Origin: an uncultured Caldithrix sp.
GTDB taxonomy: Bacteria; Electryoneota; AABM5-125-24; Hatepunaeales; Hatepunaeaceae
Length of the DNA stretch: 64,000 nucleotides
Assembly (NCBI GenBank): GCA_964355675.1
Contig: CAYHEC010000010.1
Location: 41,160 to 105,159 of the forward strand
Direction of reading: 5' to 3'
Position numbers and translations under genes: made by a program. The notes beneath the pieces were generated by a model. That model was not told the DNA's origin. It did no database searches and saw only the letters and a list, made by a program, of their open reading frames with translations. Shown piece after piece: positions 19,280 to 64,000 of this stretch. Within the stretch, counting starts at the first letter, position 1; every line of letters starts with the position of its first letter.

Positions 19280-19998
19280 TATTTATCTATTCCCAATTTT
19301 TTACGCATTAGGACTTCAACCATTGCCATATCGTTTTCGTCATCGACGCCTACAGAGCGTTCGGGAGGCATTATATAAGGAATAATCTTGTGACCCCAGA
19401 TTGAATTTTCTTCCAGTAGAACATCGCGCCGCGTAAGATAAATTGCACCATTCCGCATATACGCTGGGGGAGAGTAATCTTGTCTTCTTGTGCCCTCTTT
19501 TTCCTCAATACAAAATGGCTGAAGGTATCCTTCTTCGATCTTCTTCATTAACATAGGGTGAACCGAAAATACCTGGACTACGCTAATCACAGAGTCGCCA
19601 TTACCTTGTACACCAAGTTTTATGGCTTCCTCAATATCTTGCACTGTTCGGAAAGGTTCTGTTGGCTGTAAAAGGCATATCCAGTCAAGTCTTTGATTAT
19701 CACGCTGTTCAATGAAATGGGCTGAATGCTGGAGAACGGGTATCATGGGAACTTTATCATGGGACAGCTCTGGTGGCCTAATAAATGGAACAGTTGCCCC
19801 TGCTTCCCTCGATATTTGTGCTATCTCCTGATCATCAGTAGAAACAACAATATCGCAGAAAAGGTGCTTTGCGGCAAGAGCGGTTTCTATGGTATAAACG
19901 ATCATCGGTTTACCGCATACCTCGCGCACATTCTTCCGGTGAACGCCTTTTGATCCACCTCGTGCAGGGATAACTGCCAATATTCTTGGGTCTGCCAT
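19279..19998 (-). CDS. Acylneuraminate cytidylyltransferase family (CMP-nonulosonic acid synthetase, NeuA/LegF/PseF-like)
   Basis: 'ILAVIPARGGSKGVHRKN' signature; canonical ATG at 19998 overlapping the upstream stop (TAATG). Confidence 0.85.
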   Translation of the reverse strand: MADPRILAVIPARGGSKGVHRKNVREVCGKPMIVYTIETALAAKHLFCDIVVSTDDQEIAQISREAGATVPFIRPPELSHDKVPMIPVLQHSAHFIEQRDNQRLDWICLLQPTEPFRTVQDIEEAIKLGVQGNGDSVISVVQVFSVHPMLMKKIEEGYLQPFCIEEKEGTRRQDYSPPAYMRNGAIYLTRRDVLLEENSIWGHKIIPYIMPPERSVGVDDENDMAMVEVLMRKKLGIDK

Positions 19999-21149
19999 TA
20001 GTAGGTAAGTTTTTTGTCGATTTTTAATTCGATTGTAGATAGAATATCAGCGATTCGGTCTCCGGCACAGCCATCGCCGTATAGACTATCTGATGGGTAA
20101 TGTCCATGTGCAAGCTGGTGGGCAATTGCTTCTGTAATCTCTTGATGATCGTATCCGACATCCAACACATTCGAAGCGCGATCCCGACCACCCTGCCGAC
20201 TACCAATATTTACCACAGGAACTCCCAAGAAGGAAGATTCCCGTATTCCAACGCTTGAATTGCCAATTAGACAACGAGCTTGAGTGAGTAGATTCAGAAA
20301 ATCTTCAGGTGGTAAATTCTTATAAAAATATATATTACGAATATCATTTTGCTCGCGGAATAATCTCATCCCTTTAGAGATATGGTCAGAACCTGCGTCA
20401 ACATTGGGCCAGAACCAGAAAGTCGGCAGGTCAAGAGTTTTGACAGCCTTAAGGGTTTCGGTAATTTGAAAGAGCCCCTCATCGACTTCGGTCGTCACCG
20501 GATGTTGCATTACAATCAAATATCCGTTTTCAAGATTGAATGTGTGCCCAACTCCGCCATATTTGACCAAAGGGTTAAAATGCGAAATTGGATTCTTCTT
20601 GACTCGATCAGCCAAATCTATGGATGGACAACCGGTAATGAAAATCGTAGTAGGATCTTCCCCCATTTTTTCCACACGAACTTTGGCTTGAGAGTTAGAA
20701 ACGAAGTGAAAATTTGAGAGTTTGGTTACAGCATGCCGGACTTTCTCATCGATAGAGCCTGTTACTTCCCCGCCTTGAACGTGAGCAACGGTGATATTCA
20801 AATAGGATGCGGCTATAGCCGTTGCGATTGTCTCGTATCGATCTGCAACAGTTACAACAATATCAGGCTTGAGATTATCGAAAATCGTAGCAAGCTCAAC
20901 AACGCCTAATCCGGTTGATTTGGCGGCGGTGACAAGATTCTCACCCTCCAAAACCATATAGACAACGGCGTCGGGTGTAAAGCCATCACTCCGAATAACA
21001 TCGATGACAGGTCCATAACGCTCCAGGAGCGCCGAGGCGCCTACCACCAATTGTAATTTTAAATCCGGATGCAACTGCACAGCCTCCAGAACAGTCTTAA
21101 TACGAGAATAGCTTGGGCGCGCGGTTACAACGATACAGATATTTCGGAT
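19998..21149 (-). CDS. UDP-N-acetylglucosamine 2-epimerase, NeuC/WecB family; 5' end extended beyond the track ORF, candidate ATC start
   Basis: 'HVQGGEVTGSIDEKVRHAVTKLS' core motif; in-frame upstream codons encode 'RNICIVVTARPSYSRIKTVLEAV', which is the conserved NeuC/WecB N-terminus, with no ATG/GTG/TTG between the in-frame TAA TAA (21162-21167) and the GTG at 21080. Confidence 0.8.
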   Translation of the reverse strand: MRNICIVVTARPSYSRIKTVLEAVQLHPDLKLQLVVGASALLERYGPVIDVIRSDGFTPDAVVYMVLEGENLVTAAKSTGLGVVELATIFDNLKPDIVVTVADRYETIATAIAASYLNITVAHVQGGEVTGSIDEKVRHAVTKLSNFHFVSNSQAKVRVEKMGEDPTTIFITGCPSIDLADRVKKNPISHFNPLVKYGGVGHTFNLENGYLIVMQHPVTTEVDEGLFQITETLKAVKTLDLPTFWFWPNVDAGSDHISKGMRLFREQNDIRNIYFYKNLPPEDFLNLLTQARCLIGNSSVGIRESSFLGVPVVNIGSRQGGRDRASNVLDVGYDHQEITEAIAHQLAHGHYPSDSLYGDGCAGDRIADILSTIELKIDKKLTY

Positions 21150-23124: not shown

Positions 23125-24180
23125 TTAATTTAAGCTATCTCTCAAATAACTTTCGAGTGTTTTCTCTATGTCCGGTCGATGCCGTATATTATAGTAATGG
23201 CGCATTTTCAATATCTTCAACTGAAGCGTACTCAAACTACTCAGGATCCGGTAGTGGGTCACAATATCGGCTGAAGCGCCGCTTTGTGCCATGTGGTTTA
23301 TTGCCAATTCAGCAGTCTGGCGAGAGTTCGCTAACAATTCCCATAATGCGATTTTTGCCCAGAACTGTTGACGTTCCCATGAATACTCGGGATTGAGGAT
23401 TTTCCTGATTAGCCACCTGAGCCTTGCTTTCCCTCTTACTTCCTTTATATTCGATACCCATTCCCCAGTTATCGGCTCTTTCTTATAATAGTCAGGAAAG
23501 TACTTTGCCCTTACTCGATTTCCTTCAATCTGTGTAGAGGTCATACTATTTGCTGATAAAGAAACAAGATATAAAGGCTCAGCTATTTCATAACCATTTG
23601 CAACTTGCAATATTCTTATCCAGAGCGGTACATCACCCATAGTAAAATCTGTATCATAACCACCGACGCTCAAAGCTACTTTCCGGTCGAAAATCACTGT
23701 AGCATCACCAAATCGGCGTCTTTTGAAAAATTGTCCAGTTAACATTTCGACACTAAGTTTTCTGGATTTAAATCTATTCTGAAAGACCTCTTCAAAAATA
23801 TGATTAAAAGGGGTTAAATACATAAAGCCAGTACCGACCATTTTATATTCGGGATTTTCTTTTAAGAATGACATTTGTTTTTCGATTCGGAGTGGGAAAC
23901 TAATATCATCAGCATCCATTCGTGCAATCCACTCCGTTGTAGCATTATCCAAACCCCATTGTAAAGCTCCCTGAAATCCAACGGGACCCAATTCAAATAC
24001 TTTTACACGGTGATCTGTTAAGAAAGTGCGGGCAATTTCGGCAGTGTTATCCGATGATCCGTTCTCTAAAACCCATAATTCAAAATCAGAGAAGGTCTGA
24101 TTAAGAATACTCCGAATCGCTGGGCGTATCGTGGATTCGGCATTATGGGCAGGAAGGAAAACTGTTAATGCAGAATTAAT
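23125..24180 (-). CDS. GT2-family glycosyltransferase; conserved N-terminus lies upstream of the track ORF, candidate ATT start
   Basis: Track ORF starts at TTG 23991 inside the domain ('RMDADD' follows); in-frame upstream codons encode 'LTVFLPAHNAESTIRPAIRSILNQTFSDFELWVLENGSSDNTAEI' (GT2 N-terminal motif) back to TAA at 24241-24243, with no ATG/GTG/TTG. Confidence 0.65.
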   Translation of the reverse strand: MNSALTVFLPAHNAESTIRPAIRSILNQTFSDFELWVLENGSSDNTAEIARTFLTDHRVKVFELGPVGFQGALQWGLDNATTEWIARMDADDISFPLRIEKQMSFLKENPEYKMVGTGFMYLTPFNHIFEEVFQNRFKSRKLSVEMLTGQFFKRRRFGDATVIFDRKVALSVGGYDTDFTMGDVPLWIRILQVANGYEIAEPLYLVSLSANSMTSTQIEGNRVRAKYFPDYYKKEPITGEWVSNIKEVRGKARLRWLIRKILNPEYSWERQQFWAKIALWELLANSRQTAELAINHMAQSGASADIVTHYRILSSLSTLQLKILKMRHYYNIRHRPDIEKTLESYLRDSLN

Positions 24181-40418: not shown

Positions 40419-43400
40419 ATGAAAACGATCACTGGAATGCTACTCGCAGTAGTTCTTGTTTTGGTGGTGCCGCAGTTCGGTTTCGCCAGAATAATCAACG
40501 TCCCCGAAGAAAATCAGACTATTCAGGCGGCTATTAATACTGCAGAAGCAGGAGATACCGTTCTGGTTCAGCCGGGAATATACGGTGAAAATATTCTTTT
40601 TAACGGAATCGATATTGTCGTTGGCAGTCTGCTCCTGACGACCGGCGATCATGCTTATATCGACTCGACAATTATTGATGGAAACGCCAGCGCATCGGTT
40701 GTTAGAATCCGTACTGGTGAAACTGATGCTACTGTATTAACAGGCTTTACGATTATTAACGGCAGAGCAAATTATGGCGGCGGAGTTTATATTAACGCCG
40801 CCAGCCCGACACTCGATCATCTCATTATAACTCGAAATCACGCGATCAGAGACGGCGGCGGGATTTACTGCACGCATAACGCCAATCCCATTTTTAAACA
40901 TTTGACCGTGTCAGCCGATACTGCCGAACGGAGTAACGGCGGTCTGTTTACCTTTGATAATTCTTCAGCCACTATAATCAACTCCATCTTCAGGAGTAAC
41001 ATCCCTATCGGAACTCCTGCAGGACAAACGATTACCTTTTCCAACATTCAAAATGGTTACGCCGGACAGGGCAATATAAACAGTAATCCCCTCTTCGTCG
41101 ATCCGGGAAATGGTAACTTCCATCTGCAAGAAAATTCGCCGTGTATCGACGCTGGCGATCCGAATTCGCCTCCCGATCAAGATGAGTCTCGCGCTGATAT
41201 AGGGGCTTTTTATTTTGACCAGACTCCCTATCCGCGTATAGTTGCCTCGCATGACTCATTGGACTTCGGAGGCGTTCTTCCCGGTGCAGAACTTGCCAGA
41301 ATAATTACAATTATTAATCAAGGCGACGCCGACCTAATCGTTCAGCATCCCACGACCGACGGCGAACCTTTCCATGCCGATCCGGAGGATTGGGAGTCCG
41401 TTACTCTCGAACCGTTAGATACGCTCGAAGCCGAAGTTTTTTTCGCTCCAACCGAAATCGGGGATTTCGTGGGGCATTTCATCATCGAATCAAATGACCC
41501 TGATAACGAGACTCTTGATATAATACTCATCGGAAGTGGTGCTGTCCCGATCATAGCCGTAGCTTCTGATTCGCTTGATTTTGGTGTTGTTTTAATTGAT
41601 AATAGCTCCGAACTGCCTCTCGTCGTGAGCAATAATGGGGGAGCCGATCTGACAATAAGCGACGCCAGCGTTCAAGGAGATAACTACTCGATTGATTTTG
41701 GTGGTGAGTTTACCGTTCATCCCGATGAATCTGCTGAGATAATTGTCACATTTTCCCCGTCAGAAGCAGGCGGCTTCGATGGGGAAGTCACGATCACTTC
41801 TGATGATCCAGAGAATGCCGAAATGACTGTGGCCCTGGTCGGAGTCGGCAGAGAGCGAACCATCACAGAATTAGGGGCAATCGATACGCCGGGACAAGCG
41901 CTGGGAGTTGCTATCGTTGGATCTCTTGCACTCTTGTCCGACGGTCAGGGCGGTCTTCGAATAATCGATTATTCCGATCCTGCTAATCCTGCCGAAATTA
42001 GCTCCATCGAAACGCCGGGCAACGCCAGAGATATTGTTGTAGTAAATGGTTTAGCTTTTATCGCTGATGAGGAAAGCGGGCTGAGGATGATTGATTTCTC
42101 CGATCCCGAGCATCCTGCCGAAGTCTGGACGTTCGACACGCCCGGTCGGGCTTATGGAGTTGCGGTTGTTGGTTCGTTTGCTTATGTAGCCGATTACGAG
42201 GGAGGGCTCCGTATCGTAGATATTTCTGACCCCGAATCTCCCCATGAAGTAGGGGCATCCGAAACGAACGGCAATGCTCGAGCGGTAGCCATACTCGGTG
42301 ATTATGCGTACATAGCCGCGGAAGAGGGTGGCTTGGAAATAATCGATATTTCTGATCCGGAAAGTCCCCACCGAATTGGTTCTGTCGAAACTCCGGGGAG
42401 TGCCTATGGAATTATAGCTCGGGGAGGTTATGTTTATGTGGCCGATGGAGATAATGGTCTTTGTGTGATCGATGTTTCCACACCTGCTAACCCATCAGTA
42501 ATTACCAGCTACAACACGCCGGGGATTGCGTCCAACGTCACATCGACAGGTGAATTGATCTACGTTGCTGATTCGACCACTGGTATTCAAGTGATTAATA
42601 TAGCTGATCTTGAAAATATTGAAACGGTTGGTACATTCAACACGCATGCCGAAGCTTGTGATATTGCCATTCTTGGCGACTACTGTTTCGTCGCCGATGG
42701 AGAAAGCGGACTTCATGTATTGGACGTCTCGGAGATTGCTCAATACCCGGTTGTTTCCGTCACCCCAGAGGCGCTGAGGTTTCAGCGTACCGTTACCGGC
42801 TATAGTTCAGATATCACGTTGACAATCCATAATCGCGGTAATTGTACGTTGAATATTTTCGCGGTAGCGGTCGAGGGAAATTACTTCGAAAGTGAAATCG
42901 CAAATCCGGTGGCGATTGAGCCAATGGAGAGCTATGATTTGGCAGTTACTTTCACTCCGGAAGAAGCCGGCGATTTTGCTGGAACGCTAACAATTATTTC
43001 GGATGATCCATACCAACCTCACAAGCAAATCTCGTTGTCGGGAAGCGGGCTGGTCTTTGATCTTATCGAAGAGACCGGTTCACTCTTAGAGTTTTTCGCC
43101 GGAACTGAAGATGGATGCGCGTATGACAACTGGGTAAGCCATATCTCCGAGGGGGTTGCCCGAGACGGTTACAACGAATACTGTCCTCCGGAACTTGACC
43201 GGCAGACGAACGGCTTCGGCTCATTTACGATAATCGATAGTCTCGAAAATCCGGACGAAATAACCGCGAGTTGGTATGAGATATTTTCCAGCCTGTATCA
43301 TGGGGACATCGAAACCGCACGCGTAACCCTTGCTCTATCAAGTTTCAGCGATAAGTATCAGATAGTTCGTCTCGAAGATGGTGAGAAGAACTATGTAATC

Positions 43401-46400
43401 TTGAGAGAAAACCTGAATAATGAATACTTTGATGACAATGGTACTCAGGACGCCGCCGATGACGTTCGCGGGTCGTTCGACTTGGGATGGGGGTTGTTTG
43501 TCTTCGATCTTGACCCTTTCACGCCGGATGTTATCATCGAAGTACCTCACCCGGAAGACGATTTTCTTGCTCCTCCATCTGGGATCGATGCATTTTTTAC
43601 GATTGGCGCGAGAGCGCTCTTCGTAGCAGGAGCCGGTCGTGAAGTCAGCTGGACCGGTGAGGGAAACTATACAAATCTGAAGTCATTTTCAGATCCTACA
43701 CGCATTGAGGGTAGTGCTTTCAATCAAGCACATAAAGCGGGGGTGGACTTGATTGATCAGGAATTTGTCATCCAGATTCACAGTTACGACAGCGAATCGC
43801 ATCCCACTTTGATGCCCGCCGAACTTTCCACACGGCTCGACTACTATCCTAATCGCCCAGTTCTGGATTTTGAGAATCACTTCGATATCGTAAGTCTCAC
43901 GCCGGAGATTCCGGTTCCCGCCAATTCAACTGGACATGAAAACCACGATTCGCTACGGGTCGATGATTTCTATGCTGTCTGGTATGATATCGACGTCTTA
44001 GGTACTTATCGCTATCACAATCGCTTGGATATATCGAACGACGTGGTGATGTTCGCATCGAGCATGAATGAACAGATGCTTTACTCGATGGCTGGCCATG
44101 ATACTCTGCGGGACGATGAAAAATGGCTTCATGTCGAACAGGACGAATTTCCAAATGTCATTACTGAGGATATTCTAAACTATTATAGCGCTGGCGGAGC
44201 TATGACCTACCATAATTTCAGCCCAGCAGTTCAGTTTTACCGCCCGGTGTACACGGCGGTAAGAAACTATTACCATCATAGAACCCTGCATAACGTTCCT
44301 GATGATTATCAGACAATCCAGGCCGCTGTTGACGCTTCAGTCAGTGGAGACACAGTGCTGGTTCAGCCCGGGACTTACGTTGAAACCGTCAACTTCAAGG
44401 GCAAAGACATCACGGTGGGAAGCCTCTTCCTGAACACCGGAGACCAAGCCTACATAGAATCAACTATCATAGATGGCAACCGCAACGGCAGTGTGGTGAG
44501 ATTTGACAGTGGTGAGACCAATAATGCCTTGTTGACCGGATTCACTATTCGAAACGGTTCCGGTTCCATCGATGCTGAAAATGACATCAGCGGCGGGGGG
44601 ATACATTGCCACAACGCATCGCCCCGTCTGAATTATCTCAAAATTGTTAACAATAATGCCTGGTATGCCGCGGGTATTTATTGCGAATTAGGTTCCGATG
44701 CGATTATCGATCATTGTCTGATTACTAACAACGTCGCCGCTATTGCTGGTGGTGGTATGGATTGCTATGCCGCCAGCCCCACCATGAGCAACTGTACCAT
44801 TGCGGATAATCAGGCAATCAGGGGAGGCGGGCTCTACCTATTCGATGGCTGTAATCTGACTATTACGAACAGTATCTTCTGGAATAACGCTCCGCAAGAA
44901 CTTCTTTATTCACTTAGCGGAGTTCCCGATACGGTTATATTTCAGTACACTGACATTATGGGTGGTGAGCGTCGAGTCAACACTCACCGTAACGGCGCTG
45001 TCATCTGGGGAGAAGGCAACATCGATCAGGATCCCCGATTTGTTGCCCCTGAGGAGGGTGACTACTCTCTAAGCGAAGGAAGCCCCTGCCAAGACGCCGG
45101 AAATCCTGGCGATACACGTGATCCCGATGACACGTGGATCGATATGGGAGCGCTCTATTCTCCTTATGAGCGAGACAATCAGCCGCGCATGGTTGTTAAT
45201 TCTAATAGATTTGGCTTCGGAACTGTCGAAGTCGGGCAGAACCTTCACTTGATATTGCAGATTCACAACACGGGCTATGCCGCTCTTACGGTTTCAGAGA
45301 TGAGGCTATCAGGAGATCATCCCGACGACTTCAGCGCAGACTTCGGACAGGAGTTAACGGTCGATCCCGGTCAGATTCGCAACGTCACATTGACATTTGC
45401 CCCCGGCGATGCAGGTCGTCGAGAAGCCAATATGGTCGCCACAAGTAATGATCCGGTGCAGGCAGAGACTCAAATGGCACTTGGTGGATTCGGATTAATC
45501 CGTGGAGATCGTCATTTATGGATTGTTCCGGATGACCTTGAAAGAATTCAGGAAGCTATTGATATATCAGTCGATGGCGATACTATTCTCGTTAGATCGG
45601 GTGTTTACCAGGAGAATATCGATTTTTCGGGCAAAGCGCTTGTAGTAGGTAGCTTCTTCCTGACCGATCGTGACCCGGAATTGATCACAAATACCGTTAT
45701 CCGAGGCGACAACAGCGGCGGAGTGGTTTCTTTCATCAGCGGAGAGGATACGAACTCTGTATTATCAGGATTCACAATAACGGGTGGGCAAGATGGAGTT
45801 TACAGCGCGTCTTCAAATCCAACTATAAGTTATTGTGTTATAAATAGTAACGCGGCAGTGAACACCGGCGGCGCGGGATTGTACTGCCGCGGTGGCGCTT
45901 CGCCAAGCCTTCTTAACTGTACTTTGGTTGATAATTCAGCTCGATGGGGCGGTGGTATGTACATTCGAGAAGGAAGTGGCGTCACCTTGACCAACTGTAT
46001 TGTTTGGGCAAATGATCCAAACACAGTTTACTCATCGGGTAACGGCGTAAGAAATCGACTTTCGGTGGATCACTCGAATATTGAGGGTGATCGACAGGGG
46101 GTTGTTACCAACAATAATTGTCAGGTCACCTGGGGCGAAGGCAATATCAACACAGATCCTCTGTTTGTTGATTTGGGTAATGGAGACTTCCGTCTGGGAG
46201 CCAACAGTCCCTGCGTCGATGCAGGCAATGCCAATTCGCCGCTCGATGCCGACAGCACCCGCGCCGATCTTGGCGCTCTTTACTATGACCATCGGACGCC
46301 TCGTATCGCTGTGGAGCCTGCCGAGCTCGATTTTGAACTGACAAGAATAGGCGAATTGTCAGAGAAAGAGATAGTTATCTTTAACAGGGGTGTTGCTGAC

Positions 46401-48908
46401 CTGACCGTTACAAATCTCCCCATAGAAGGCGAATACTTCTCTTGCGATTTCAGGCAGGAACTCGTGATCCACCCGGATGACTCTACCGTTGTCACTGTAG
46501 CCTTCATACCTGAGGTGCAAGGCGATTTCGAAGCTGTTCTGACGATTTTGTCCGATGACCCTAACAATTGGGCGATTCCTGTTCGTCTTCATGGTGTTAG
46601 TGGGAGCCAACCACCGGAAATCATCAGCGAGATAGGAGATCTGTCCTACCCAGAAGACTCTGGTCCCTGGACAATCGCCGATCTCGATACGGTCTTCAAT
46701 GATCCGGAGGGAGATAACCTGACTTTCAGCGCTATAGCGCCTGACCCGTTGACGGTGTTAATTGGGAACGAAGATCATGTCTTGGTTCTTGAAGCGCCCG
46801 CCAACTTTAACACCGAAGGACTCGAAATTCAAGTTACCGCATCGGATAGTATTGGCGGAAGACGGGTGATGATAATAAGGACTTTACGCGGAACCGCTAA
46901 TCAAATGGTACGGCTTACAGATTTAGGCTCAGTACAGCCGAAAGATGTCGGCAGTACCAATGAAGGAATTAATTCCTCATCGACCCCATTCAAAATTCAC
47001 CAGATCAGTCGCGATGGATCAGCAGAGGATATATTTACGCTTGTTATAGAACCAATCAACGATGAACCAGTGTGGGTGAATTACCCGCAAGAGATCATCC
47101 GAGTCGAGAGTGGTGGCGTTATCGAGTTTGTAGTAGTAACGGAAGACGTCGATGGTGATCGGTTGAATTTGAGGATGATTGGCAACGATCTCCCGGATGA
47201 AGTCCAGTTTGTCGTAACTGAAAATGGCCGAGGTCGCTTAAATTGGCAAACCACAATTGAAACGGTTGGTCATTTTGAAGTAGTCCTGTCGGTTTCTGAC
47301 GGTGCGGTTTCGTCGGAGATCACTGTAAACGTGATTGTCATCCACCCGCCTCAGCACTTCACGGAATTTGACCAGACAGAGCAAAGCCACAATTTGCATG
47401 TAACAGGCGTCTCAATCAACGGTGACCCGGTCTCTGCTGGCTGGGAAGTCGGCGTCTTTACGCCTGCCGGTGTTTTGGCAGGTGGGGACGCTTGGACGGA
47501 AGTTGAGATGGATCTGCCAGTCTGGGGCGCTGATGACAACCATCAGGATTATTTCCACGAAGGCGAGACAATGAGTCTCAAGTTGTGGGACTACCAAGCT
47601 GATGCGGAGTGGGATGGTGGGGCAGTGGTCGAAGAAGGTGAAATGAATTGGGTGAATAACGGCAATACCGTTCTTACTGTCGAAAGCAACAGCCTAAAAA
47701 CATTGGAAGTAGCCATGCGTCTGGGCTGGAAACTGATTTCGGTCAACGTGATCCCATCCGATCAGGATTTCTGGGCTGGCGACCCCGGTCCTGAAATTGT
47801 TCCGATGATGTCCCAGCTCCGCCGTCCGAACAACGGAGCACATCATCTAATTCTGATGAAGGATGAGCGTGGGCGGTTCTATATACCGGAACGTGGTTTC
47901 GGCAATATGTCTTATTGGAATCTCGCAGAGAGCTATCAGGTTCGTATCGACTCCGCTATGTCGGCATTCTGGACAGGAACGCCGATCAATCCACAAGCCG
48001 ATGTTCCGATTACCCGTGGTTGGAATTATATTGCTTACTTTCCGGATTATCAACTTTCTGCGTACAGCAGAGATGGTTGCTATGTGTTATCGCCGATCAT
48101 CGATCACGTTCTCCTAGCCAAGGACGGCCTTGGTAACTTTATGATCCCGTCACGCGGATTCTTCAGCAATATGCCGCCATGGCGGGAAGGACAGGGCTAC
48201 CAGATCAATGTCGATCAAGATGTTGTCCTGAATTACCCACAAGCACAGAATCAGGCCGCGGCATTGTCAGTCGATCCTGAGTCTGTCAAGGGTCGTTGGG
48301 CCGATGTACCTTCGACCGGTGCAAACATGAGCGTGTTGGTCACCAAGGTATCGGGCGTCGATCTTTCGACTTCCGACCAGGTTGCCGCGTTCAGCCCGTC
48401 CGGTCTTATGGTTGGCGTAGGCCGAGTAATCGATGGACAGATTGGTATTGCAGTCTGGGGCGACGACGCCTCAACCCAAGCGGTGGACGGCCTGAAAGAC
48501 GGCGAAGCGTTCACGCTGAAGTTGTGGAATGCCGCTGAAGACGTAGTTGTCGATCTTAGTTCGCGGGTTATCGAAGGCGACCGCCTTGTCTATTTGACAG
48601 ACGGTTTCACGGTAATCGACGCGTCTGTAACGACAGCACTTCCGACCGAGTTCTATCTCAGTCAGAACTACCCGAACCCGTTCAATGCAGTGACTCGTGT
48701 AGCCTTCGGCTTGCCGGAAGCATCACGTGTGACGGTTCGCGTGTTCGATCTGTCTGGACGTGAAGTATCGACGTTGGTGAGTGGTGAGCTTCAGGCTGGC
48801 CATCACAGTGTCGTGTTGGATGGCGAATCGATGGTATCGGGCGTTTACATCGTCAAGATGGAAGCGACGAACTTCAGCGCCGTTCGTAAAGTAATGCTCG
48901 TGAAGTAA
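40419..48908 (+). CDS. Giant secreted multidomain surface protein: signal peptide, three parallel beta-helix (Pmp/pectin-lyase-like) modules, Ig-like domains, LVIVD beta-propeller, T9SS C-terminal sorting domain
   Basis: 2829-aa uninterrupted ORF; signal peptide 'MKTITGMLLAVVLVLVVPQFGFA'; module 'VP..QTIQAA...GDTVLVQPG.Y.E...F.G.DI.VGS' occurs three times; GGG[IV]Y / F..N repeats; C-terminal 'NYPNPFNAVTRVAFGLPEASRVTVRVFDLSGREV...SGVYIVKMEATNFSAVRKVMLVK'. Confidence 0.85.
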   Translation: MKTITGMLLAVVLVLVVPQFGFARIINVPEENQTIQAAINTAEAGDTVLVQPGIYGENILFNGIDIVVGSLLLTTGDHAYIDSTIIDGNASASVVRIRTGETDATVLTGFTIINGRANYGGGVYINAASPTLDHLIITRNHAIRDGGGIYCTHNANPIFKHLTVSADTAERSNGGLFTFDNSSATIINSIFRSNIPIGTPAGQTITFSNIQNGYAGQGNINSNPLFVDPGNGNFHLQENSPCIDAGDPNSPPDQDESRADIGAFYFDQTPYPRIVASHDSLDFGGVLPGAELARIITIINQGDADLIVQHPTTDGEPFHADPEDWESVTLEPLDTLEAEVFFAPTEIGDFVGHFIIESNDPDNETLDIILIGSGAVPIIAVASDSLDFGVVLIDNSSELPLVVSNNGGADLTISDASVQGDNYSIDFGGEFTVHPDESAEIIVTFSPSEAGGFDGEVTITSDDPENAEMTVALVGVGRERTITELGAIDTPGQALGVAIVGSLALLSDGQGGLRIIDYSDPANPAEISSIETPGNARDIVVVNGLAFIADEESGLRMIDFSDPEHPAEVWTFDTPGRAYGVAVVGSFAYVADYEGGLRIVDISDPESPHEVGASETNGNARAVAILGDYAYIAAEEGGLEIIDISDPESPHRIGSVETPGSAYGIIARGGYVYVADGDNGLCVIDVSTPANPSVITSYNTPGIASNVTSTGELIYVADSTTGIQVINIADLENIETVGTFNTHAEACDIAILGDYCFVADGESGLHVLDVSEIAQYPVVSVTPEALRFQRTVTGYSSDITLTIHNRGNCTLNIFAVAVEGNYFESEIANPVAIEPMESYDLAVTFTPEEAGDFAGTLTIISDDPYQPHKQISLSGSGLVFDLIEETGSLLEFFAGTEDGCAYDNWVSHISEGVARDGYNEYCPPELDRQTNGFGSFTIIDSLENPDEITASWYEIFSSLYHGDIETARVTLALSSFSDKYQIVRLEDGEKNYVILRENLNNEYFDDNGTQDAADDVRGSFDLGWGLFVFDLDPFTPDVIIEVPHPEDDFLAPPSGIDAFFTIGARALFVAGAGREVSWTGEGNYTNLKSFSDPTRIEGSAFNQAHKAGVDLIDQEFVIQIHSYDSESHPTLMPAELSTRLDYYPNRPVLDFENHFDIVSLTPEIPVPANSTGHENHDSLRVDDFYAVWYDIDVLGTYRYHNRLDISNDVVMFASSMNEQMLYSMAGHDTLRDDEKWLHVEQDEFPNVITEDILNYYSAGGAMTYHNFSPAVQFYRPVYTAVRNYYHHRTLHNVPDDYQTIQAAVDASVSGDTVLVQPGTYVETVNFKGKDITVGSLFLNTGDQAYIESTIIDGNRNGSVVRFDSGETNNALLTGFTIRNGSGSIDAENDISGGGIHCHNASPRLNYLKIVNNNAWYAAGIYCELGSDAIIDHCLITNNVAAIAGGGMDCYAASPTMSNCTIADNQAIRGGGLYLFDGCNLTITNSIFWNNAPQELLYSLSGVPDTVIFQYTDIMGGERRVNTHRNGAVIWGEGNIDQDPRFVAPEEGDYSLSEGSPCQDAGNPGDTRDPDDTWIDMGALYSPYERDNQPRMVVNSNRFGFGTVEVGQNLHLILQIHNTGYAALTVSEMRLSGDHPDDFSADFGQELTVDPGQIRNVTLTFAPGDAGRREANMVATSNDPVQAETQMALGGFGLIRGDRHLWIVPDDLERIQEAIDISVDGDTILVRSGVYQENIDFSGKALVVGSFFLTDRDPELITNTVIRGDNSGGVVSFISGEDTNSVLSGFTITGGQDGVYSASSNPTISYCVINSNAAVNTGGAGLYCRGGASPSLLNCTLVDNSARWGGGMYIREGSGVTLTNCIVWANDPNTVYSSGNGVRNRLSVDHSNIEGDRQGVVTNNNCQVTWGEGNINTDPLFVDLGNGDFRLGANSPCVDAGNANSPLDADSTRADLGALYYDHRTPRIAVEPAELDFELTRIGELSEKEIVIFNRGVADLTVTNLPIEGEYFSCDFRQELVIHPDDSTVVTVAFIPEVQGDFEAVLTILSDDPNNWAIPVRLHGVSGSQPPEIISEIGDLSYPEDSGPWTIADLDTVFNDPEGDNLTFSAIAPDPLTVLIGNEDHVLVLEAPANFNTEGLEIQVTASDSIGGRRVMIIRTLRGTANQMVRLTDLGSVQPKDVGSTNEGINSSSTPFKIHQISRDGSAEDIFTLVIEPINDEPVWVNYPQEIIRVESGGVIEFVVVTEDVDGDRLNLRMIGNDLPDEVQFVVTENGRGRLNWQTTIETVGHFEVVLSVSDGAVSSEITVNVIVIHPPQHFTEFDQTEQSHNLHVTGVSINGDPVSAGWEVGVFTPAGVLAGGDAWTEVEMDLPVWGADDNHQDYFHEGETMSLKLWDYQADAEWDGGAVVEEGEMNWVNNGNTVLTVESNSLKTLEVAMRLGWKLISVNVIPSDQDFWAGDPGPEIVPMMSQLRRPNNGAHHLILMKDERGRFYIPERGFGNMSYWNLAESYQVRIDSAMSAFWTGTPINPQADVPITRGWNYIAYFPDYQLSAYSRDGCYVLSPIIDHVLLAKDGLGNFMIPSRGFFSNMPPWREGQGYQINVDQDVVLNYPQAQNQAAALSVDPESVKGRWADVPSTGANMSVLVTKVSGVDLSTSDQVAAFSPSGLMVGVGRVIDGQIGIAVWGDDASTQAVDGLKDGEAFTLKLWNAAEDVVVDLSSRVIEGDRLVYLTDGFTVIDASVTTALPTEFYLSQNYPNPFNAVTRVAFGLPEASRVTVRVFDLSGREVSTLVSGELQAGHHSVVLDGESMVSGVYIVKMEATNFSAVRKVMLVK
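41880..42735 (+). repeat. Seven tandem LVIVD-type repeats (beta-propeller) within the giant protein
   Basis: Recurring ~40-aa unit 'TPG.A.GVA..G..AY.AD...GL.I.D.SDP..P' seen seven times. Confidence 0.7.
48651..48905 (+). other. T9SS (Por secretion system) C-terminal sorting domain of the giant protein
   Basis: Final ~85 aa begin 'FYLSQNYPNPFNAVT' and end 'KVMLVK', matching the conserved type-A CTD pattern. Confidence 0.8.
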
Positions 48909-54610: not shown

Positions 54611-56046
54611 TATTGGAGATTTTGACCCGAGAGAATTTCAATGCGTGGATTCATCTGAGCTTCCAGACTAAATATCCTTCGAAATGCCAGTTGCCCCTGC
54701 CGACTTAATAAAACGAGTTTGTCTGGATTGATCCGGTAGTCGTCAACAACGTCAGCAATATCTCCCGGCTCGCGTGATATTATGCGAATCTCTTCACCAT
54801 CAATCAAAGCTGAATTGAGAGAGAGTTCATCAGTACAAAACAATGCTACGCCACAAAGCCCTGCTTCGATGCAGGCTCCGGTCGGGAACCCATCAAATGC
54901 TCCGGGGCTCAACACAAATGGCACGTTGGGCGATAAGATAGCATCCATCCGGTTGTAAAATTCAGAGAAGAAATCGGTCTTTTGTGTTCCATAAAAGCGA
55001 ATCCGTTCAGCGAAGTCACTTACCTCGATATCGCTTGAGTCGAACGATCCGACAACATGGAAGCTGTAGTTACGACTCCTTTTAAGCAACTCCCTTGCGG
55101 TTTGTATGAAAACGTCATATCCCTTGTCGATGCCCTGTTCCATGTATTTATTTGCCACGAAGCAGACGTCGAATGTTTTTTTATTCGTCCCGTAATGTTT
55201 CCGCTCCGTTGGAAATGCCGATAGCTGGTTCGAGGGTAAGACACCGCCGTAAATGAACTCGATTATTTCTGGATCGCAGTACCCTTTCGATAAAAGGTAA
55301 TCACGGGTTACTCTCTGCGTTGTGATGATTTTTTTTAAGTACTTGGATGAACAGACTCGTTTCAGTTTCTCATCAGAAATATCTTGATCGAGTGCGAATC
55401 CTCCACCCGGATATAGGGTAAAGATAAAAGGAATGCCACTTCGCTCAATATCTGCAAGGAAATAATCCGCGTTATTCAAAAATATCATATAGACAAGCTC
55501 TCCCGCCAAATTTGATCCTTGCCTGTATTTGACAACGCGATTCCGGTATTGGGGGTAGTATCCAAGGTACTCCTCACGCACTTCCTCGAAAGTGCGTGAT
55601 TCGTTGATGGCTGGAAAGGTAGAGGCTGTAGATTGGACTTCCGCATCAGGGAATTCGTCAAGGAATGCATTGAATTCGGCAACGCGGAATGCAGATAACA
55701 GGTGCGGAAAGATGTCATCCAGAATTATGAGAGATTTATGGGGCTTACCGCTGATACTATTGGCACGAGGCGAGAAGTCCGAATCTTTCTTAAGAAACTC
55801 TTCAATTTTCTTTGACAGCTCCGTCAGTCTGGCAATCACGCGGGCATTTTCGACAAACCCGGGGGGAAGAGCATTAGCCAGATTCATCGACCGCTCCAAT
55901 AGTGGCGCAACAATGTCGATCTCTCCAGCCTCAATAAGGCGATCAGCCGCGTCGCATATCAAGAGAATCTTTTGGATGCTGTCCTGAATCATCGAATGAT
56001 CATATAAATCAATCTGTATTTCGAGACATTGACTTTGCTTCGGCAA
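54610..56046 (-). CDS. GT-B fold (GT4-like) glycosyltransferase
   Basis: C-terminal 'FDGFPTGACIEAGLCGVALFCTD' donor-binding-like motif; 5' end overlaps upstream gene so true start probably internal. Confidence 0.55.
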   Translation of the reverse strand: MPKQSQCLEIQIDLYDHSMIQDSIQKILLICDAADRLIEAGEIDIVAPLLERSMNLANALPPGFVENARVIARLTELSKKIEEFLKKDSDFSPRANSISGKPHKSLIILDDIFPHLLSAFRVAEFNAFLDEFPDAEVQSTASTFPAINESRTFEEVREEYLGYYPQYRNRVVKYRQGSNLAGELVYMIFLNNADYFLADIERSGIPFIFTLYPGGGFALDQDISDEKLKRVCSSKYLKKIITTQRVTRDYLLSKGYCDPEIIEFIYGGVLPSNQLSAFPTERKHYGTNKKTFDVCFVANKYMEQGIDKGYDVFIQTARELLKRSRNYSFHVVGSFDSSDIEVSDFAERIRFYGTQKTDFFSEFYNRMDAILSPNVPFVLSPGAFDGFPTGACIEAGLCGVALFCTDELSLNSALIDGEEIRIISREPGDIADVVDDYRINPDKLVLLSRQGQLAFRRIFSLEAQMNPRIEILSGQNLQ

Positions 56047-57238
56047 TAATCGAGCGAAGGGTGGTGCAAATCCGGAATATCTCGGTTTCGCCCATCGATG
56101 TGCCAGTTGGGAGGGAGATGACCCTTTCGGTCAATTTCTCCGTCACTGTCAGGAGGAGGCCGGCGTTGGGGAAATAGGAGCGATACGGTTCCATCTTGTG
56201 GCAACCCGGGTGAAAGTATCGTCTGCAGAGGATGTTCAGATCGTGCATCTTACGAACGATTTCATCACGCGAAACGCCAGTTATCTGTTCATCGATGTCC
56301 AGGATGATGTATTGGTAATTATTGCTTTCGTGCGCGGGATGTTCGACAAGATGTATCCCGGGAATTTCCGAGAGAGCGGTACGATAAAGATCGTAGTTAC
56401 ACTTGTTTACGTCGATGAATTCGTCTATGCTTTCGAGGTTTGTAAGTCCCATTATGGCAGAAATTTCGGACATTTTGCCATTAGTGCCGATGTAGATAAC
56501 ATTGTCGTAACCACTGAATCCGAAATTCTGCATTAGTCTGGTTTTCTCAGCAACTTCGTCGCTATTGGTCAATACTGCTCCTCCTTCGAAGGAGTTGAGA
56601 AATTTTGTGGCGTGGAAGCTAAGCACCTCTGCATCTCCAAAACGACCGATCATTCTGCCTTTGTAGGTACAACTGAGTGCATGTGCCGCATCGTAGATCA
56701 CTTTCAAGTTGTGTTCTTGGGCAATTTCGGCTATTTCATCGACCGGGCAGGCATGTCCCCAGATATGAACGCCGATAATGCCGGTTGTTCGCGGCGTTAT
56801 GAGCCTGCGAATCTGCGCAGGATCGATGGTATGAGTAATCGGATCAATATCGCAGAAGACCGGTGTAATTTCCTGCCATTGCAGTGCGTGCGCAGTTGCA
56901 ACAAAAGTGAATGACGGGACGATCACCTCGCCTTTCATCTCCAGTGCCCTGATTATAATCTCGAGCGCAATAGTGCCATTGCACATGGCAATGCAATGCT
57001 TTACCTGACAATATTCTGCCAGACGTGCTTCGAACTCACGCAGGAACGGCCCTCGATTGGTCAACCACCGGTTGTCGAGCATTTCATTGATGCGTTCGAA
57101 CAACCGTTTTCTATCGCCAATGTTAGGTTTGCCAACGTGTAGTGGTTCAAGATGCGCATCACTCTGATAGGAAGAAACCAGGTCGGTAGTGAATGTCTTG
57201 GTTGTATTTGCTGGAAGAGAGAAATTCCTTGCAACCAT
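56009..57238 (-). CDS. DegT/DnrJ/EryC1/StrS-family PLP-dependent sugar aminotransferase
   Basis: 'CNGTIALEIIIRAL', 'GEVIVPSFTFVATA' and lysine-containing 'SFHATKFLNSFEGG' motif. Confidence 0.9.
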   Translation of the reverse strand: MVARNFSLPANTTKTFTTDLVSSYQSDAHLEPLHVGKPNIGDRKRLFERINEMLDNRWLTNRGPFLREFEARLAEYCQVKHCIAMCNGTIALEIIIRALEMKGEVIVPSFTFVATAHALQWQEITPVFCDIDPITHTIDPAQIRRLITPRTTGIIGVHIWGHACPVDEIAEIAQEHNLKVIYDAAHALSCTYKGRMIGRFGDAEVLSFHATKFLNSFEGGAVLTNSDEVAEKTRLMQNFGFSGYDNVIYIGTNGKMSEISAIMGLTNLESIDEFIDVNKCNYDLYRTALSEIPGIHLVEHPAHESNNYQYIILDIDEQITGVSRDEIVRKMHDLNILCRRYFHPGCHKMEPYRSYFPNAGLLLTVTEKLTERVISLPTGTSMGETEIFRICTTLRSIIAEAKSMSRNTD

Positions 57239-60752: not shown

Positions 60753-61415
60753 TCAGCCATCGCTCATATGCCACCCCTTCTCCATGGCCTTCACAGCCTT
60801 CCCAGGGCAACCAACAACAGTCGTGTTAGGCTCCACTGGATTGATTATGGTGCTACCAGCCCCAATGCGCGACCACTCGCCGATAGGGAGTTTCTCGAGT
60901 ATATTTGCTCCTGTTCCGATGAATGCTCCCTCATTGATACTCACATTTCCCGAAATGTGACATCCAGGTGAGACGGTAACAAAATCCGCGATTGTTGAAT
61001 CGTGCCCGATGGTACAGTCCAAATTGACATGAACATGCTTCCCGATCGTTATGTTCGTCGTGAGAATGCACCCGGCAGTGATGATACTTCCCTCACCAAT
61101 TACCACGCGACGAGTCACTATCGCCCGCGGATGCACGATGGAGCAGTACTTTGCCCCAAGAGTCTCCAACCGCTTGATCATACGATATCTGAGGTCAGGT
61201 GTACCTATCGCGCACGTCAACTCAACCCTGTTGACGTTTTTGGCGATCCACCTTGTATCTCCGAGGATTGGCAGTCCATTTATCAGTGTTCCCGGCGTTC
61301 CATATTGTCCATCAACTATGAACCCGATGCACTCCACCGAATTATCTCTCTCTTGGATGGCTTCGACAACATCAAGGACCTCGCGCGCGAAGCCGCCAGC
61401 GCCAATGATTGCAAT
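60753..61415 (-). CDS. NeuD/PglD-family sugar N-acyltransferase (hexapeptide repeat); N-terminus upstream of track ORF, candidate ATT start
   Basis: Hexapeptide repeats 'IGEGSIITAGCIL', 'IGTGANILEKLPIGEWSRIGAGSTI'; in-frame upstream codons encode 'KQIAIIGAGGFAREVLDVVEAIQ' (NeuD/PglD N-terminal motif) with no ATG/GTG/TTG back to TAG at 61515-61517. Confidence 0.7.
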   Translation of the reverse strand: MAIIGAGGFAREVLDVVEAIQERDNSVECIGFIVDGQYGTPGTLINGLPILGDTRWIAKNVNRVELTCAIGTPDLRYRMIKRLETLGAKYCSIVHPRAIVTRRVVIGEGSIITAGCILTTNITIGKHVHVNLDCTIGHDSTIADFVTVSPGCHISGNVSINEGAFIGTGANILEKLPIGEWSRIGAGSTIINPVEPNTTVVGCPGKAVKAMEKGWHMSDG

Positions 61416-62134
61416 TTGTTTTGGTTTGTTCGTTTTTAATCCATTTGTTTGGTAAACTTCGCAAGTCTGGCATGTTACGCTACATGCTGATTTCTCTGTC
61501 GCAAGGGAAAACTAAAACTCGTTTTTTCATATCAGTAATAATTTGCCATTTAGGTTTTTATTTGCTACTGTCTCGAAGATTATTTTTCGCAAGCTGAATC
61601 TGTTGACAGCAAAATAAGATACACCTGTATTTAGAAAAATCGATTTATAATCAGGTTTTTCGATTTACGAAATTTATTTAGGGTCTGCTGAAAAAGTCTA
61701 GCGACATTCAGGGAGTTGCCCTCGTCTGCTATTCCAGCGTACTTGACCAAACGGCTGACAAGGACATCCGAATGAACTCCATGTGCCGTCACGCGACAGC
61801 TTGGCCCGCCCAGCTATGCTGTGCGGGCTACTCGCCACGATTTTTATCATTTGGAATTTGGGCAATAGCCCCTCTTAGTCTTGCAATAGCATTGCTGATT
61901 CACTATCCTTGACATTGGTGAGGATGAATATTATCTTTGCAGTTTATATGAAGGTTGCGTGATTCTTGGCGACCTGGCAGAATAAGCATCCCGCTTACTT
62001 TCGCAATTGCCGTAAAACAATCTCAGTTAAGACCTGCCAAGAATAGGGTACGGCTTAAATGTAAGAGGAGTTTCCCAACTTATGGAGTTGCAGAAGGAAA
62101 GTAGAAGCCTCGAATCGGTTGAAGCACATTAGGC

Positions 62135-63340
62135 GTGAGAAAGCCGTTCGGGTTGCCATATCTGAAAATCAAAGGAATCCTATTCGATGAGCATCGCATC
62201 TATATGAGCGAATTTCTAACGAGTCTTCCACAAAAAGGGAGATTCACTGTCCGACTGCTTCTCTTCTGCTTGCTTTTTCTACTGATCTCTGAGATGGGGA
62301 TTCGTGTCTTTATCCCTACTTCAGATCCCCTCGCTTCAATCGCAGACAGTCACTATCTGATCAAACGCTATGATCCATCACAATACCACGAGGGAAGGTG
62401 GGTCTCAGGAAACCTTGCGCAGATCATTGGTCGATGGCGAGTCAACAACCTCGGCTACTTGTCTGAAATCGACTTTTCCCCCGATTCAATCCGCGTCAAA
62501 CCGGCGATTGGGTTGATCGGTGATTCCCATGTCGAGGCGTTTCAAGTTGATTTTAACAGACAGATGTCAGCGTTCCTTCAGAGTGAATTCGGCGATTCAA
62601 TTCTGGTTTATCGATATGGTAGATCGGGGTGGGCGTTTTCCCAATATCTCCACCAGACTCGCGTCGCGATGGCGGAAGTCTCATTAGATGCAATAATTTA
62701 TCTTTGTGCTCCAGAAGATATTTGGAATAGCGATTATTCAATAAATCACACACCATTTAATGTTCTGTTGAAGATAACCCCGACCGGAATTCAAGAAACC
62801 ACGCCAGTGATCGAGCAGAGATCGACGCTTGAACTGAGATTAATGCATAGTGCTATTCTACGGTACTTGGTATGGAACCGCAAATTCGACTTCGCCACTG
62901 GGTTGCATAGAAAGTCGGTAAAACTGATCCAAAATTCGGCCCCCCCTACAAATCATTCAAGTTATGACGACGAACAGAAGATGCGCATGATTACCGACTA
63001 CATCGTCGGATCACTTCGGCGAGAATTTCTCGGCACGCCGATTCTGTTCGTTATTAAACCTGAAAATGATCGTGCTCCTGAAGAGGAGGCAATTCTCCGG
63101 ATGATTGTGAGAGCGGCGGCTACGAATAACTGCGGGTACCTCGATTTGACAAGCGCTTTTAAGACTGCCAGTGAACAAGGCATTAAAGTTCGATTCGAAG
63201 GAGATTCTCATTTTACGGAGGCAGGGCATCAAGTTGCGGCAAAGGCGATCAAAGATTATCTCAGTTCATGGGAAGAATTCAGATCCAACTTCCGTCTCTC
63301 GCCAGACCCACTGTTTGATCGGCAAGAGTCTGCCCGATGA
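62135..63340 (+). CDS. SGNH/GDSL-type hydrolase-like protein (AlgX/AlgJ/PatB-like O-acetyltransferase partner)
   Basis: N-terminal signal anchor, 'GLIGDSHVEAF' GDS(H) block, C-terminal 'GDSHFTEAGH'; directly precedes an MBOAT gene with ATGA overlap. Confidence 0.55.
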   Translation: MRKPFGLPYLKIKGILFDEHRIYMSEFLTSLPQKGRFTVRLLLFCLLFLLISEMGIRVFIPTSDPLASIADSHYLIKRYDPSQYHEGRWVSGNLAQIIGRWRVNNLGYLSEIDFSPDSIRVKPAIGLIGDSHVEAFQVDFNRQMSAFLQSEFGDSILVYRYGRSGWAFSQYLHQTRVAMAEVSLDAIIYLCAPEDIWNSDYSINHTPFNVLLKITPTGIQETTPVIEQRSTLELRLMHSAILRYLVWNRKFDFATGLHRKSVKLIQNSAPPTNHSSYDDEQKMRMITDYIVGSLRREFLGTPILFVIKPENDRAPEEEAILRMIVRAAATNNCGYLDLTSAFKTASEQGIKVRFEGDSHFTEAGHQVAAKAIKDYLSSWEEFRSNFRLSPDPLFDRQESAR

Positions 63341-64000
63341 ACTTCACATCCACAATATTCTATCTGTTTTTCCCATTGGTGTTGGCGGCTTATTATCTGA
63401 TGGGAGTCGAAAAGCGTTTGCAGAACGGCATATTACTTATAGCGAGCGCAGTTTTCTATTGCTGGTTTGATTGGCGTATCTACGGATTGCTCATCGTGAG
63501 CGCTACGCTCGATTTTCTTATTGCGCGGATGATCTCCATACAATCCAGTCAGACTCAAAAGCGTGGATGGTTTATTGTCAGCATATTGGTTAACTTGCTT
63601 CCTTTGATATTTCTAAAGTATGCAACACTTTTGTTAGGGTCTTTAACCAGCGTAGCAGTCGCCATCGGCTTCAAGGACGGTTACAGGCTTGCTCCATTGA
63701 TGATACCTCTCGGGATCAGTTACTTCACCTTCGTGAAAATCAGCTACATGTCGGACATCTATCGAGGTAATCGTTCTCCTGAACGGAACTACCTTGATTT
63801 CATTGCCTTTATAACGTTCTTTCCAACCATCATTGCCGGCCCTATCGAACGATCCAAAACTCTACTCGATCAGTTGAAGGTGAAACGACTATTCGACGAT
63901 CAAAGGATGAGAACCGGATTGCGAATGATTTTATGCGGGTTTTTCAAGAAGTTGGTGATTGCAGATAATCTGGAACCGGTTATAAGCCGGGTATTCGCAA
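63337..64000 (+). CDS. MBOAT-family membrane-bound O-acyltransferase (AlgI/DltB/PatA-like), 3' end beyond window
   Basis: ATG at 63337; translation contains 'GISYFTF' and 'FFPTIIAGPIER' conserved MBOAT motifs; ORF runs to the window end and is therefore absent from the track. Confidence 0.85.
   Translation, partial: MNFTSTIFYLFFPLVLAAYYLMGVEKRLQNGILLIASAVFYCWFDWRIYGLLIVSATLDFLIARMISIQSSQTQKRGWFIVSILVNLLPLIFLKYATLLLGSLTSVAVAIGFKDGYRLAPLMIPLGISYFTFVKISYMSDIYRGNRSPERNYLDFIAFITFFPTIIAGPIERSKTLLDQLKVKRLFDDQRMRTGLRMILCGFFKKLVIADNLEPVISRVFA

Follow-up and report, generated by a model that had tools for sequence, protein, structure and literature searches.

The acetyltransferase gene and its N-terminal region

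The window analyzed here, a stretch of 64,000 nucleotides from an uncultured Caldithrix sp. (contig CAYHEC010000010.1), is a large glycan-biosynthesis locus encoded almost entirely on the minus strand. It contains many glycosyltransferases of families GT1, GT2 and GT4, a Wzy-like polymerase, a Wzm/Wzt ABC exporter, DegT aminotransferases, epimerases, dehydratases, a NeuB-like synthase, a CMP-transferase and an AsnB-like amidotransferase. The gene under study encodes a NeuD-family acetyltransferase; it heads its transcription direction and faces a divergent O-acetylation pair (AlgX-like and MBOAT), and its frame encodes the first part of the N-terminal domain of the family upstream of the first canonical start codon. 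Two further genes of the window show the same pattern, and the three were considered together as candidates for initiation at near-cognate codons. The features of the acetyltransferase region are as follows.

60753..61433, minus strand: acetyltransferase coding region at its maximal plausible extent, from ACG 61433 to the stop codon 60755-60753
61512..61514, minus strand: in-frame TAG closing the acetyltransferase frame upstream, read from the sequence
61431..61433, minus strand: ACG (Thr), near-cognate start candidate 2, aligned with Met1 of the homologue P0002
61413..61415, minus strand: ATT (Ile), near-cognate start candidate 1, to which position 2 of the TIGR03570 profile maps
61338..61412, minus strand: start-less coding segment, ATT 61415 to GTG 61337, encoding, within the Rossmann-like N-domain, the remainder of beta1, then the GAGG loop and alpha1
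61335..61337, minus strand: GTG, first canonical start and start of the public 194-aa call P0001; first residue of beta2 in the model
61372..61473, minus strand: 33-codon open reading frame (ORF) in another frame, ATG 61473 to TGA 61372, overlapping the candidate starts

The acetyltransferase frame (60753-61511, minus strand) is open from the TAG at 61514-61512 down to the stop codon at 60755-60753. As claimed in a preliminary description of this region, which had placed the TAG three bases away at 61515-61517, the translation of 60753-61640 on the minus strand contained no ATG, GTG or TTG between this stop codon and GTG 61337, a distance of 58 codons. The start-less stretch translates as FSLATEKSACSVTCQTCEVYQTNGLKTNKPKQIAIIGAGGFAREVLDVVEAIQERDNS, followed by V(GTG 61337)ECIGF, and shares its reading frame with the 194-aa ORF that extends from GTG 61337 to the stop at 60753. 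Because ATG, GTG and TTG together account for 5.4% of the in-frame codons in the coding sequence of this window, a start-less run of 58 codons would arise by chance alone in about 4% of cases, and the run is meaningful because homology covers the start-less part rather than because of its length. The preliminary description had presented ATT 61415 as the sole near-cognate or isoleucine codon close to the expected start, but ACG 61433-61431, ATC 61409 and ATT 61406 are, like ATT 61415-61413, in frame upstream of GTG 61337. The predicted product would have 226 aa when counted from ACG 61433 and 220 aa from ATT 61415. On the opposite strand, the acetyltransferase gene is faced by a pair of long antisense ORFs of 145 and 134 aa (61002-61455, plus strand), which are unsupported and probably its shadow frames.

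The extended frame scored 201.7 bits with the TIGR03570 profile (NeuD/PglB/VioB sugar acetyltransferase), whose curated cutoff is 160.8, and matched it over positions 2-202 of 202. This match begins at the isoleucine of ATT 61415, and without the start-less upstream segment it would not be full length. In agreement with it, the Pfam domain PF17836 (PglD_N) was matched over its whole profile (1-78 of 78) from the glutamine at 61418, together with Hexapep repeats, and the family profiles thus begin 26-27 codons upstream of GTG 61337. The earlier assignment to a NeuD/PglD-type two-domain acetyltransferase was upheld by the TIGR03570 and PglD_N matches, and the presence of the motif peptide in the same frame upstream of GTG 61337 was confirmed by the translation and by PglD_N.

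An AlphaFold2 (AF2) model of the extended acetyltransferase, built on 29 homologues, reached a mean pLDDT (predicted local distance difference test) of 86. In the model, beta1 occupies residues 5-10 (KQIAII) and is followed by the GAGG loop, by alpha1 (residues 14-29) and by beta2, which starts exactly at the GTG codon, in a domain order of a beta1-alpha1-beta2 N-domain and then a left-handed beta-helix. Foldseek comparison of the model with PerB, PglB-ATD, VioB, WeeI and PglD gave template modelling (TM) scores of 0.82-0.94, the TMt values being 0.94 for VioB (7txp), 0.90-0.91 for PerB (4ea7/4eaa), 0.90 for PglB-ATD (4m98) and 0.84-0.88 for PglD. Residues 2-5 of the solved homologues align to K/Q/I at 61421-61413, and among the 29 homologues G11 and G13 of the loop are invariant and A12 and G14 are conserved in at least 90%. 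The gene product therefore resembles these enzymes in fold, domain order and full-length profile match, and in the GxGG loop and the invariant His of the catalytic region, and the gene is clustered here with DegT aminotransferases and NeuB/NeuC-like genes; it differs from them in its low identity to the solved members (only 22-32%) and in its non-canonical start codon. Taken together, the family matches, the model and the comparison with P0002 given below identify the gene as encoding a complete and selectively maintained two-domain nucleotide-sugar N-acetyltransferase of the PglD/PerB/VioB/LegH type, predicted to use acetyl-CoA to N-acetylate a nucleotide-linked amino sugar.

Selection on the two parts of the frame was measured by comparison with P0002 (locus L007), the homologue nearest to this protein, which is 73% identical and whose gene has an ATG start behind a GGGGAG Shine-Dalgarno site. 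The proportions of nonsynonymous (pN) and synonymous (pS) differences were the following.

ATT 61415 to the codon before GTG 61337: 26 codons; amino acid identity 73%; pN 0.153; pS 0.684
GTG 61337 to the stop codon: 192 codons; amino acid identity 73%; pN 0.183; pS 0.754

The pN/pS of the start-less segment thus did not exceed that of the part downstream of it, and all of the positions within this segment that are conserved in at least 90% of the 29 homologues are retained (11/11). Neither an internal stop codon nor a frameshift was found in the acetyltransferase frame, whose profile match is full length and above the cutoff. These comparisons indicate that the start-less segment has evolved as protein-coding sequence and that purifying selection on it equals that on the remainder of the gene.

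The 341 bases from 61300 to 61640 are identical in three other assemblies (two from ENA and one from Logan), all four assemblies being short-read. The ENA assembly ERZ4201063 differs from the window by 3 single-nucleotide polymorphisms over ~6.2 kb, at 62399, 62438 and 62455, all of them in the AlgX-like gene; these differences in the neighbouring gene show that it does not simply repeat the consensus of the window, and it represents a slightly different population. The regions of the two other start-less genes described below are likewise identical in ERZ4201063. An assembly error, which the preliminary description had named as one of two outcomes that would undo its claim, was judged unlikely from this agreement, at least as a one-off event. 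A contig from the unrelated run SRR24858484 is 100% identical to the window over 61834-64000.

Two further start-less genes in the window

A census was made in which every long frame was translated from stop to stop and the genes of the window, about 43, were scanned with Pfam or NCBIfam. A family profile reaching well upstream of any canonical start was found in exactly three of them, and in none of the ~11 further genes in the 16-18 kb of flanking sequence. The acetyltransferase gene had been announced as the third such case in the window, and this was confirmed, the others being a GT2 glycosyltransferase gene at 23125-24240 and a NeuC-like gene at 19998-21161, both on the minus strand. The count of genes with this pattern that had been suggested as a check consequently stands at 3 in ~54 for the window and its flanks.

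Case A, 60753-61511, minus strand: NeuD-family acetyltransferase; 58 start-less codons; first canonical start GTG 61337; candidate starts ATT 61415 and ACG 61433
Case B, open frame 23125-24240, likely coding sequence 23125..24180, minus strand: GT2 glycosyltransferase; first canonical start TTG 23991
Case C, open frame 19998-21161, likely coding sequence 19998..21149, minus strand: NeuC/LegG-like hydrolysing 2-epimerase; first canonical start GTG 21080

The GT2 gene has 83 start-less codons. In the open frame its PF00535 domain starts from residue 26, 58 codons before TTG 23991, and the methionines of its homologues (n=16) align to residues 19-21; residue 21 is encoded by ATT 24180-24178, which is the likely start. 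The public call of this gene, P0127, is a truncated protein of 275 aa without any Pfam match. The NeuC-like gene has 27 start-less codons and matches TIGR03568 with 369.8 bits (cutoff 235.9), position 2 of the profile lying at residue 7, that is, 21 codons before GTG 21080. Since residue 3 of PDB 5zlr (LegG) aligns to residue 7 of this frame, Met1 of 5zlr corresponds to Ile5, encoded by ATC 21149-21147, the likely start of the gene; ATC 21149 falls within the upstream gene, 25 nt from its end at TAA 21127-21125.

Across the genes of the locus, neither frameshifts nor internal stop codons were seen. Assuming a background rate of 1 in 120, the probability of finding at least three cases in 55 genes is ~0.01, and it falls below 1e-3 at more realistic rates. 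A crude control on the run lengths in four unrelated 20-kb loci gave at most 35 start-less codons for any real gene, and the longest runs ended in ATG. The occurrence of three start-less genes within ~41 kb of one glycan locus is an unusual clustering.

Probable near-cognate initiation and its alternatives

The alignment of the orthologues, proposed in the preliminary description as a check, showed a conserved N-terminus and placed Met1 of P0002 exactly at ACG 61433 (MKEKKQIVIVGAGG vs TNKPKQIAIIGAGG), not at ATT 61415. The distance between Met1 and the first Gly of the GAGG motif has a minimum of 7 and a mode of 7-8 in 121 homologues, and it would be 10 with a start at ACG 61433, as it is in 8 of the 121. 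A product started at ATT 61415 would read M-A-I-I-G-A-G-G and would keep 4 of the 6 residues of beta1. The predicted N-terminal peptides of the full-length forms are (f)M-NKPKQIAIIGAGGFAR or M-AIIGAGGFAR, and either start would yield a complete N-domain.

The leader of the acetyltransferase gene was analyzed as well. The 20 nt upstream of the ACG and ATT candidates contain 60-70% A (70% for ATT), compared with ~40% at 25 confident ATG starts, and the unpaired probability is 0.79 at ACG 61433, the least structured spot of the leader, and 0.56 at ATT 61415, the values for real starts and internal sites being 0.50 +/- 0.12 and 0.45 +/- 0.10, respectively. Shine-Dalgarno sites are present at few genes of the window, and the leader of the two candidates is devoid of one. 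Such an A-rich and unstructured leader fits an organism of the FCB group (Fibrobacteres-Chlorobi-Bacteroidetes) that is poor in Shine-Dalgarno sites. An Rfam scan of the leader and its surroundings revealed no riboswitch or leader family, a scan for sigma-70 promoters, terminators and the Bacteroidia -7 motif TAnnTTTG gave matches at chance frequency only, and no transcription start could be placed. A tRNA scan of the window found none.

The reading that we favour, with a probability of about 0.58, is that the full-length acetyltransferase is translated from a near-cognate codon and that the same applies to the GT2 and NeuC-like genes. Initiator formylmethionyl-tRNA would read AUU 61415 or ACG 61433 within the A-rich, poorly structured leader, without the help of a Shine-Dalgarno site, and the output would likely be a few percent or less of the AUG level. 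A single substitution in an ancestral ATG would probably have given rise to the near-cognate codon, which might have been tolerated or favoured as a low-expression allele; the GT2 gene (ATT 24180) and the gene of the NeuC/LegG-like epimerase (ATC 21149) would show the same weak initiation. In agreement with this reading, near-cognate codons sit at the methionine positions of the homologues in all three genes, i.e. at ACG 61433 (P0002), at ATT 24180 (GT2 homologues) and at ATC 21149 (5zlr). In E. coli, AUA, AUC, AUU and CUG initiate at ~1-2% of AUG and the other codons, including ACG, at ~0.1-1%, and green fluorescent protein initiated at ACG carried an N-terminal Met (bioRxiv 10.1101/063800). 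Initiation at these codons, the codon used and the yield of protein are what we infer here from sequence. Gene finders that are limited to ATG, GTG and TTG would then report N-terminally truncated proteins.

Initiation at near-cognate codons is by itself already known, and it is the clustering at one locus that is unusual. The infC and pcnB genes of E. coli are functional genes initiated at AUU with a low or regulated output (bioRxiv 10.1101/063800, PMC7797042), and the three genes described here would resemble them in lacking a canonical start and in having a near-cognate codon read, as we propose, by the initiator tRNA. However, the AUU codon is experimentally proven and conserved in the E. 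coli genes, and in infC it is tied to the autoregulation of initiation factor 3 (IF3), whereas the genes of this window encode glycan-biosynthesis enzymes known from sequence and number three in ~41 kb, compared with two confirmed genome-wide in E. coli. The infC gene of Flavobacterium johnsoniae, which has an ATA start and whose earlier annotation lacked 57 codons (PMC7797042), is closer in several respects, with an FCB-group host poor in Shine-Dalgarno sites, conserved N-terminal residues upstream of the annotated start and a true start at an ATH codon missed by gene finders. In that case, in contrast, mass spectrometry and mutagenesis established the position of the start and the gene encodes the initiation factor itself, and no comparable cluster of ATH-start biosynthetic genes has been reported (PMC7797042). 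Nothing specific was found in the literature on lineages rich in ATT starts, and no publication turned up under the run or assembly accessions.

Several observations weigh against near-cognate initiation, the support for which is in silico. Neither candidate codon of the acetyltransferase gene is free of objections: a start at ATT 61415 gives a distance of 4 to the GAGG motif, 3 residues below the shortest of the 121 homologues, and would make the N-terminus shorter than that of any homologue, and AUU outperforms ACG as an initiator in E. coli (bioRxiv 10.1101/063800). The start-site position-weight matrix derived from the 25 confident ATG starts performed barely above background in leave-one-out and gave no support at the GT2 and NeuC candidates, and it was left unused for choosing among candidate starts; local RNA accessibility overlaps for real starts and internal sites, and while it favoured the leader of the acetyltransferase gene, it did not support the GT2 and NeuC candidates either. 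A start codon lost only very recently would go unnoticed in the selection test, and a search of 5.8 billion proteins retrieved no intermediate relatives. In this search the closest other homologue of the acetyltransferase was the 73% identical protein with an ATG start, none was found between 73% and 99% identity, the 99%-identical match being the acetyltransferase gene itself, and the next homologues of the GT2 protein were 45-59% identical, with none above 59%. A scan of species-representative genomes, a collection that does not include the genome of the window, returned only homologues of 30-32% identity. Finally, only 1 switch from AUG to AUU in 61,358 was reported among annotated genes of closely related genomes (PMC5622118), although gene finders do not recognize such starts and the count shares this limitation.

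Some of these observations would also fit a recent loss of the start codon, which would make the acetyltransferase gene a pseudogene or an "off" allele whose ancestral ATG, most simply at 61433 where ACG now stands, has mutated, leaving the gene effectively silent; perhaps the GT2 and NeuC-like genes were silenced likewise, with the nonulosonic-acid branch switched off or dispensable. ACG 61433 is indeed a single transition away from ATG, exactly at the Met of the closest homologue, and near-cognate codons yield merely 0.02-3% of the AUG output in E. coli (bioRxiv 10.1101/063800). The acetyltransferase and the NeuC-like gene are probably the LegH-like and LegG-like steps of one pathway, in which a correlated loss after the first hit is conceivable, recent events would be invisible to the selection test, and the persistence of the near-cognate codons cannot be followed in close relatives. 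However, no second lesion was found in any of the three genes, the TIGR03570 and TIGR03568 matches are full length and above the curated cutoffs, the conserved N-terminal residues of the acetyltransferase are intact, and the pN/pS of its start-less segment is not raised with respect to the rest of the gene. The share of disabling point substitutions that would hit the start codon is 0.10, 0.04 and 0.05 for the three genes, and under neutral decay the loss of the start only in all three would have a probability of 0.10 x 0.04 x 0.05 = 2e-4, which becomes lower still when indels are considered. Moreover, the other ~51 genes look intact, and each replacement is a near-cognate codon that keeps some initiation and not a random triplet. 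We therefore regard silencing as unlikely, while recognizing it as a serious contender, and there is no sharp border between the two readings, a near-cognate start being a strong down-mutation and not a null one.

Translation from GTG 61337 as publicly annotated, with the 194-aa protein as the functional product, is very improbable. Although GTG 61337 is the first canonical start, is preceded by the purine-rich AGAGAGAGA and was the choice of the gene callers (P0001), its product would begin at beta2, and its sugar-nucleotide-binding domain would be missing beta1, alpha1 and the invariant GxGG loop between them. PglD_N is absent only from P0001, the truncated public call of this same gene, and is present in the other 119 of the 120 best homologues, and the coding-type constraint on the 26 upstream codons would be left unexplained if they were untranslated. 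A protein functional from the GTG was the other outcome that the preliminary description had regarded as fatal to its claim, and it was judged unlikely on account of the missing beta1 and alpha1.

A start at the out-of-frame ATG 61473 followed by a +1 shift on ATT-AAA-AAC (61439-61431), or an indel error in the A-run that hides an in-frame ATG, is harder still to credit. The 33-codon ORF from ATG 61473 does overlap the acetyltransferase frame one base out of phase, with an A5 run where a +1 slip would join the two. However, the resulting 19-residue extension is without counterpart in most homologues, ATG 61473 has a poor context and is buried inside the 3' arm of a hairpin (61468-61489; unpaired probability 0.38), known slippage sites are longer than an A5 run, an error in this run would need to recur in each of the four short-read assemblies, and the two other start-less genes would be left unexplained.

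Pathway, host and significance

A nonulosonic-acid gene set at 19279-23118 and 56009-57238 on the minus strand (NeuB-like synthase, D-2-hydroxyacid dehydrogenase, NeuC/LegG-like epimerase, PseF-like CMP-transferase, AsnB-like amidotransferase and DegT aminotransferases) suggests a pathway of the legionaminic or pseudaminic type, the scores of the NeuB-like and PseF-like proteins being below the equivalog cutoffs. Two of the three start-less genes, those of the acetyltransferase and the NeuC-like epimerase, would probably belong to this pathway. The NeuC-like gene matches the structures of LegG (5zlr and 5xvs; E = 1e-54), the alignment starting at residue 3, and is adjoined by the NeuB-like synthase and CMP-transferase genes, and a PglD-type acetyltransferase is the expected LegH-like partner; the assignment to this specific pathway would follow from family matches only.

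Other genes of the locus were recorded along the way. A hexapeptide acetyltransferase gene at 9244-9777 was considered as a frameshifted gene and rejected, its protein being complete and the neighbouring 157-aa ORF without a family match. The ~390 nt (8852-9243) between this gene and that of a GFO/IDH/MocA oxidoreductase (7838-8851) hold only that overlapping 157-aa ORF, which has no Pfam match, and one public assembly calls an 82-aa gene there. The glycan cluster also contains a split transketolase pair at 34113-35827 on the minus strand (N-terminal subunit 35003-35827, C-terminal subunit 34113-35006) whose subunits overlap as GTGA, and a similar TTGA overlap occurs at 4709-4712; both overlaps suggest translational coupling with non-ATG starts, as read from the sequence. 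A ParB-like gene (ParB_N and HTH_ParB; 39089-39970, minus strand) is located at the edge of the glycan locus, adjoining the Wzm/Wzt exporter genes.

With regard to the host, a protein of 2829 aa encoded at 40419-48908 on the plus strand contains LVIVD repeats, many HYDIN/ASH-type Ig-like domains and a C-terminal Por_Secre_tail, and it looks like a type IX secretion cargo. The last ~300 nt of its gene are 80% identical to the tail of the gene for a 2237-aa protein just outside the window (L009 20389-20688). Proteins with type IX secretion sorting domains are found in and beside the window, and the best named homologue of the SelA encoded nearby comes from a metagenome-assembled genome of Calditrichaeota (52% identity); the type IX cargo and the SelA match identify the predicted host as an uncultured member of the FCB group, one that lacks close relatives among the sequenced genomes. 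The selA gene (L011 15473-16915) and a SelD-like gene with AIRS domains (L013 911-2263) lie just beyond the end of the window, and the host probably makes selenoproteins. Genes with a UGA codon read as selenocysteine would be another class truncated by standard gene finders.

It is possible, although doubtful at present, that the host tolerates or exploits initiation at AUU and AUC, and possibly ACG, at levels 10-100x above those of model bacteria, in ~5% of the genes examined. This might take either of two forms. In one, start discrimination by IF3 and the 30S subunit may be relaxed lineage-wide, in the presence of A-rich leaders and the absence of Shine-Dalgarno sites; in the other, by analogy with infC, a small translational regulon may tie surface-glycan decoration (the LegH-like, LegG-like and GT2 genes) to the IF3 level or the growth state.

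If the near-cognate starts are true, the public records carry truncated proteins of 194, 275 and 358 aa, one of them stripped of every recognizable domain, and a reconstruction of the glycan-locus pathway from public calls would be wrong or incomplete. Scanning of stop-to-stop frames with family profiles would reveal such cases in metagenomes generally. For the organism, the three genes would point either to a relaxed fidelity of start-codon selection at the level of the lineage, in the absence of Shine-Dalgarno pairing, or to a deliberate translational throttling of a surface-glycan branch. If they are silenced alleles instead, they would represent an unusual, start-codon-specific way to switch off a glycan pathway.

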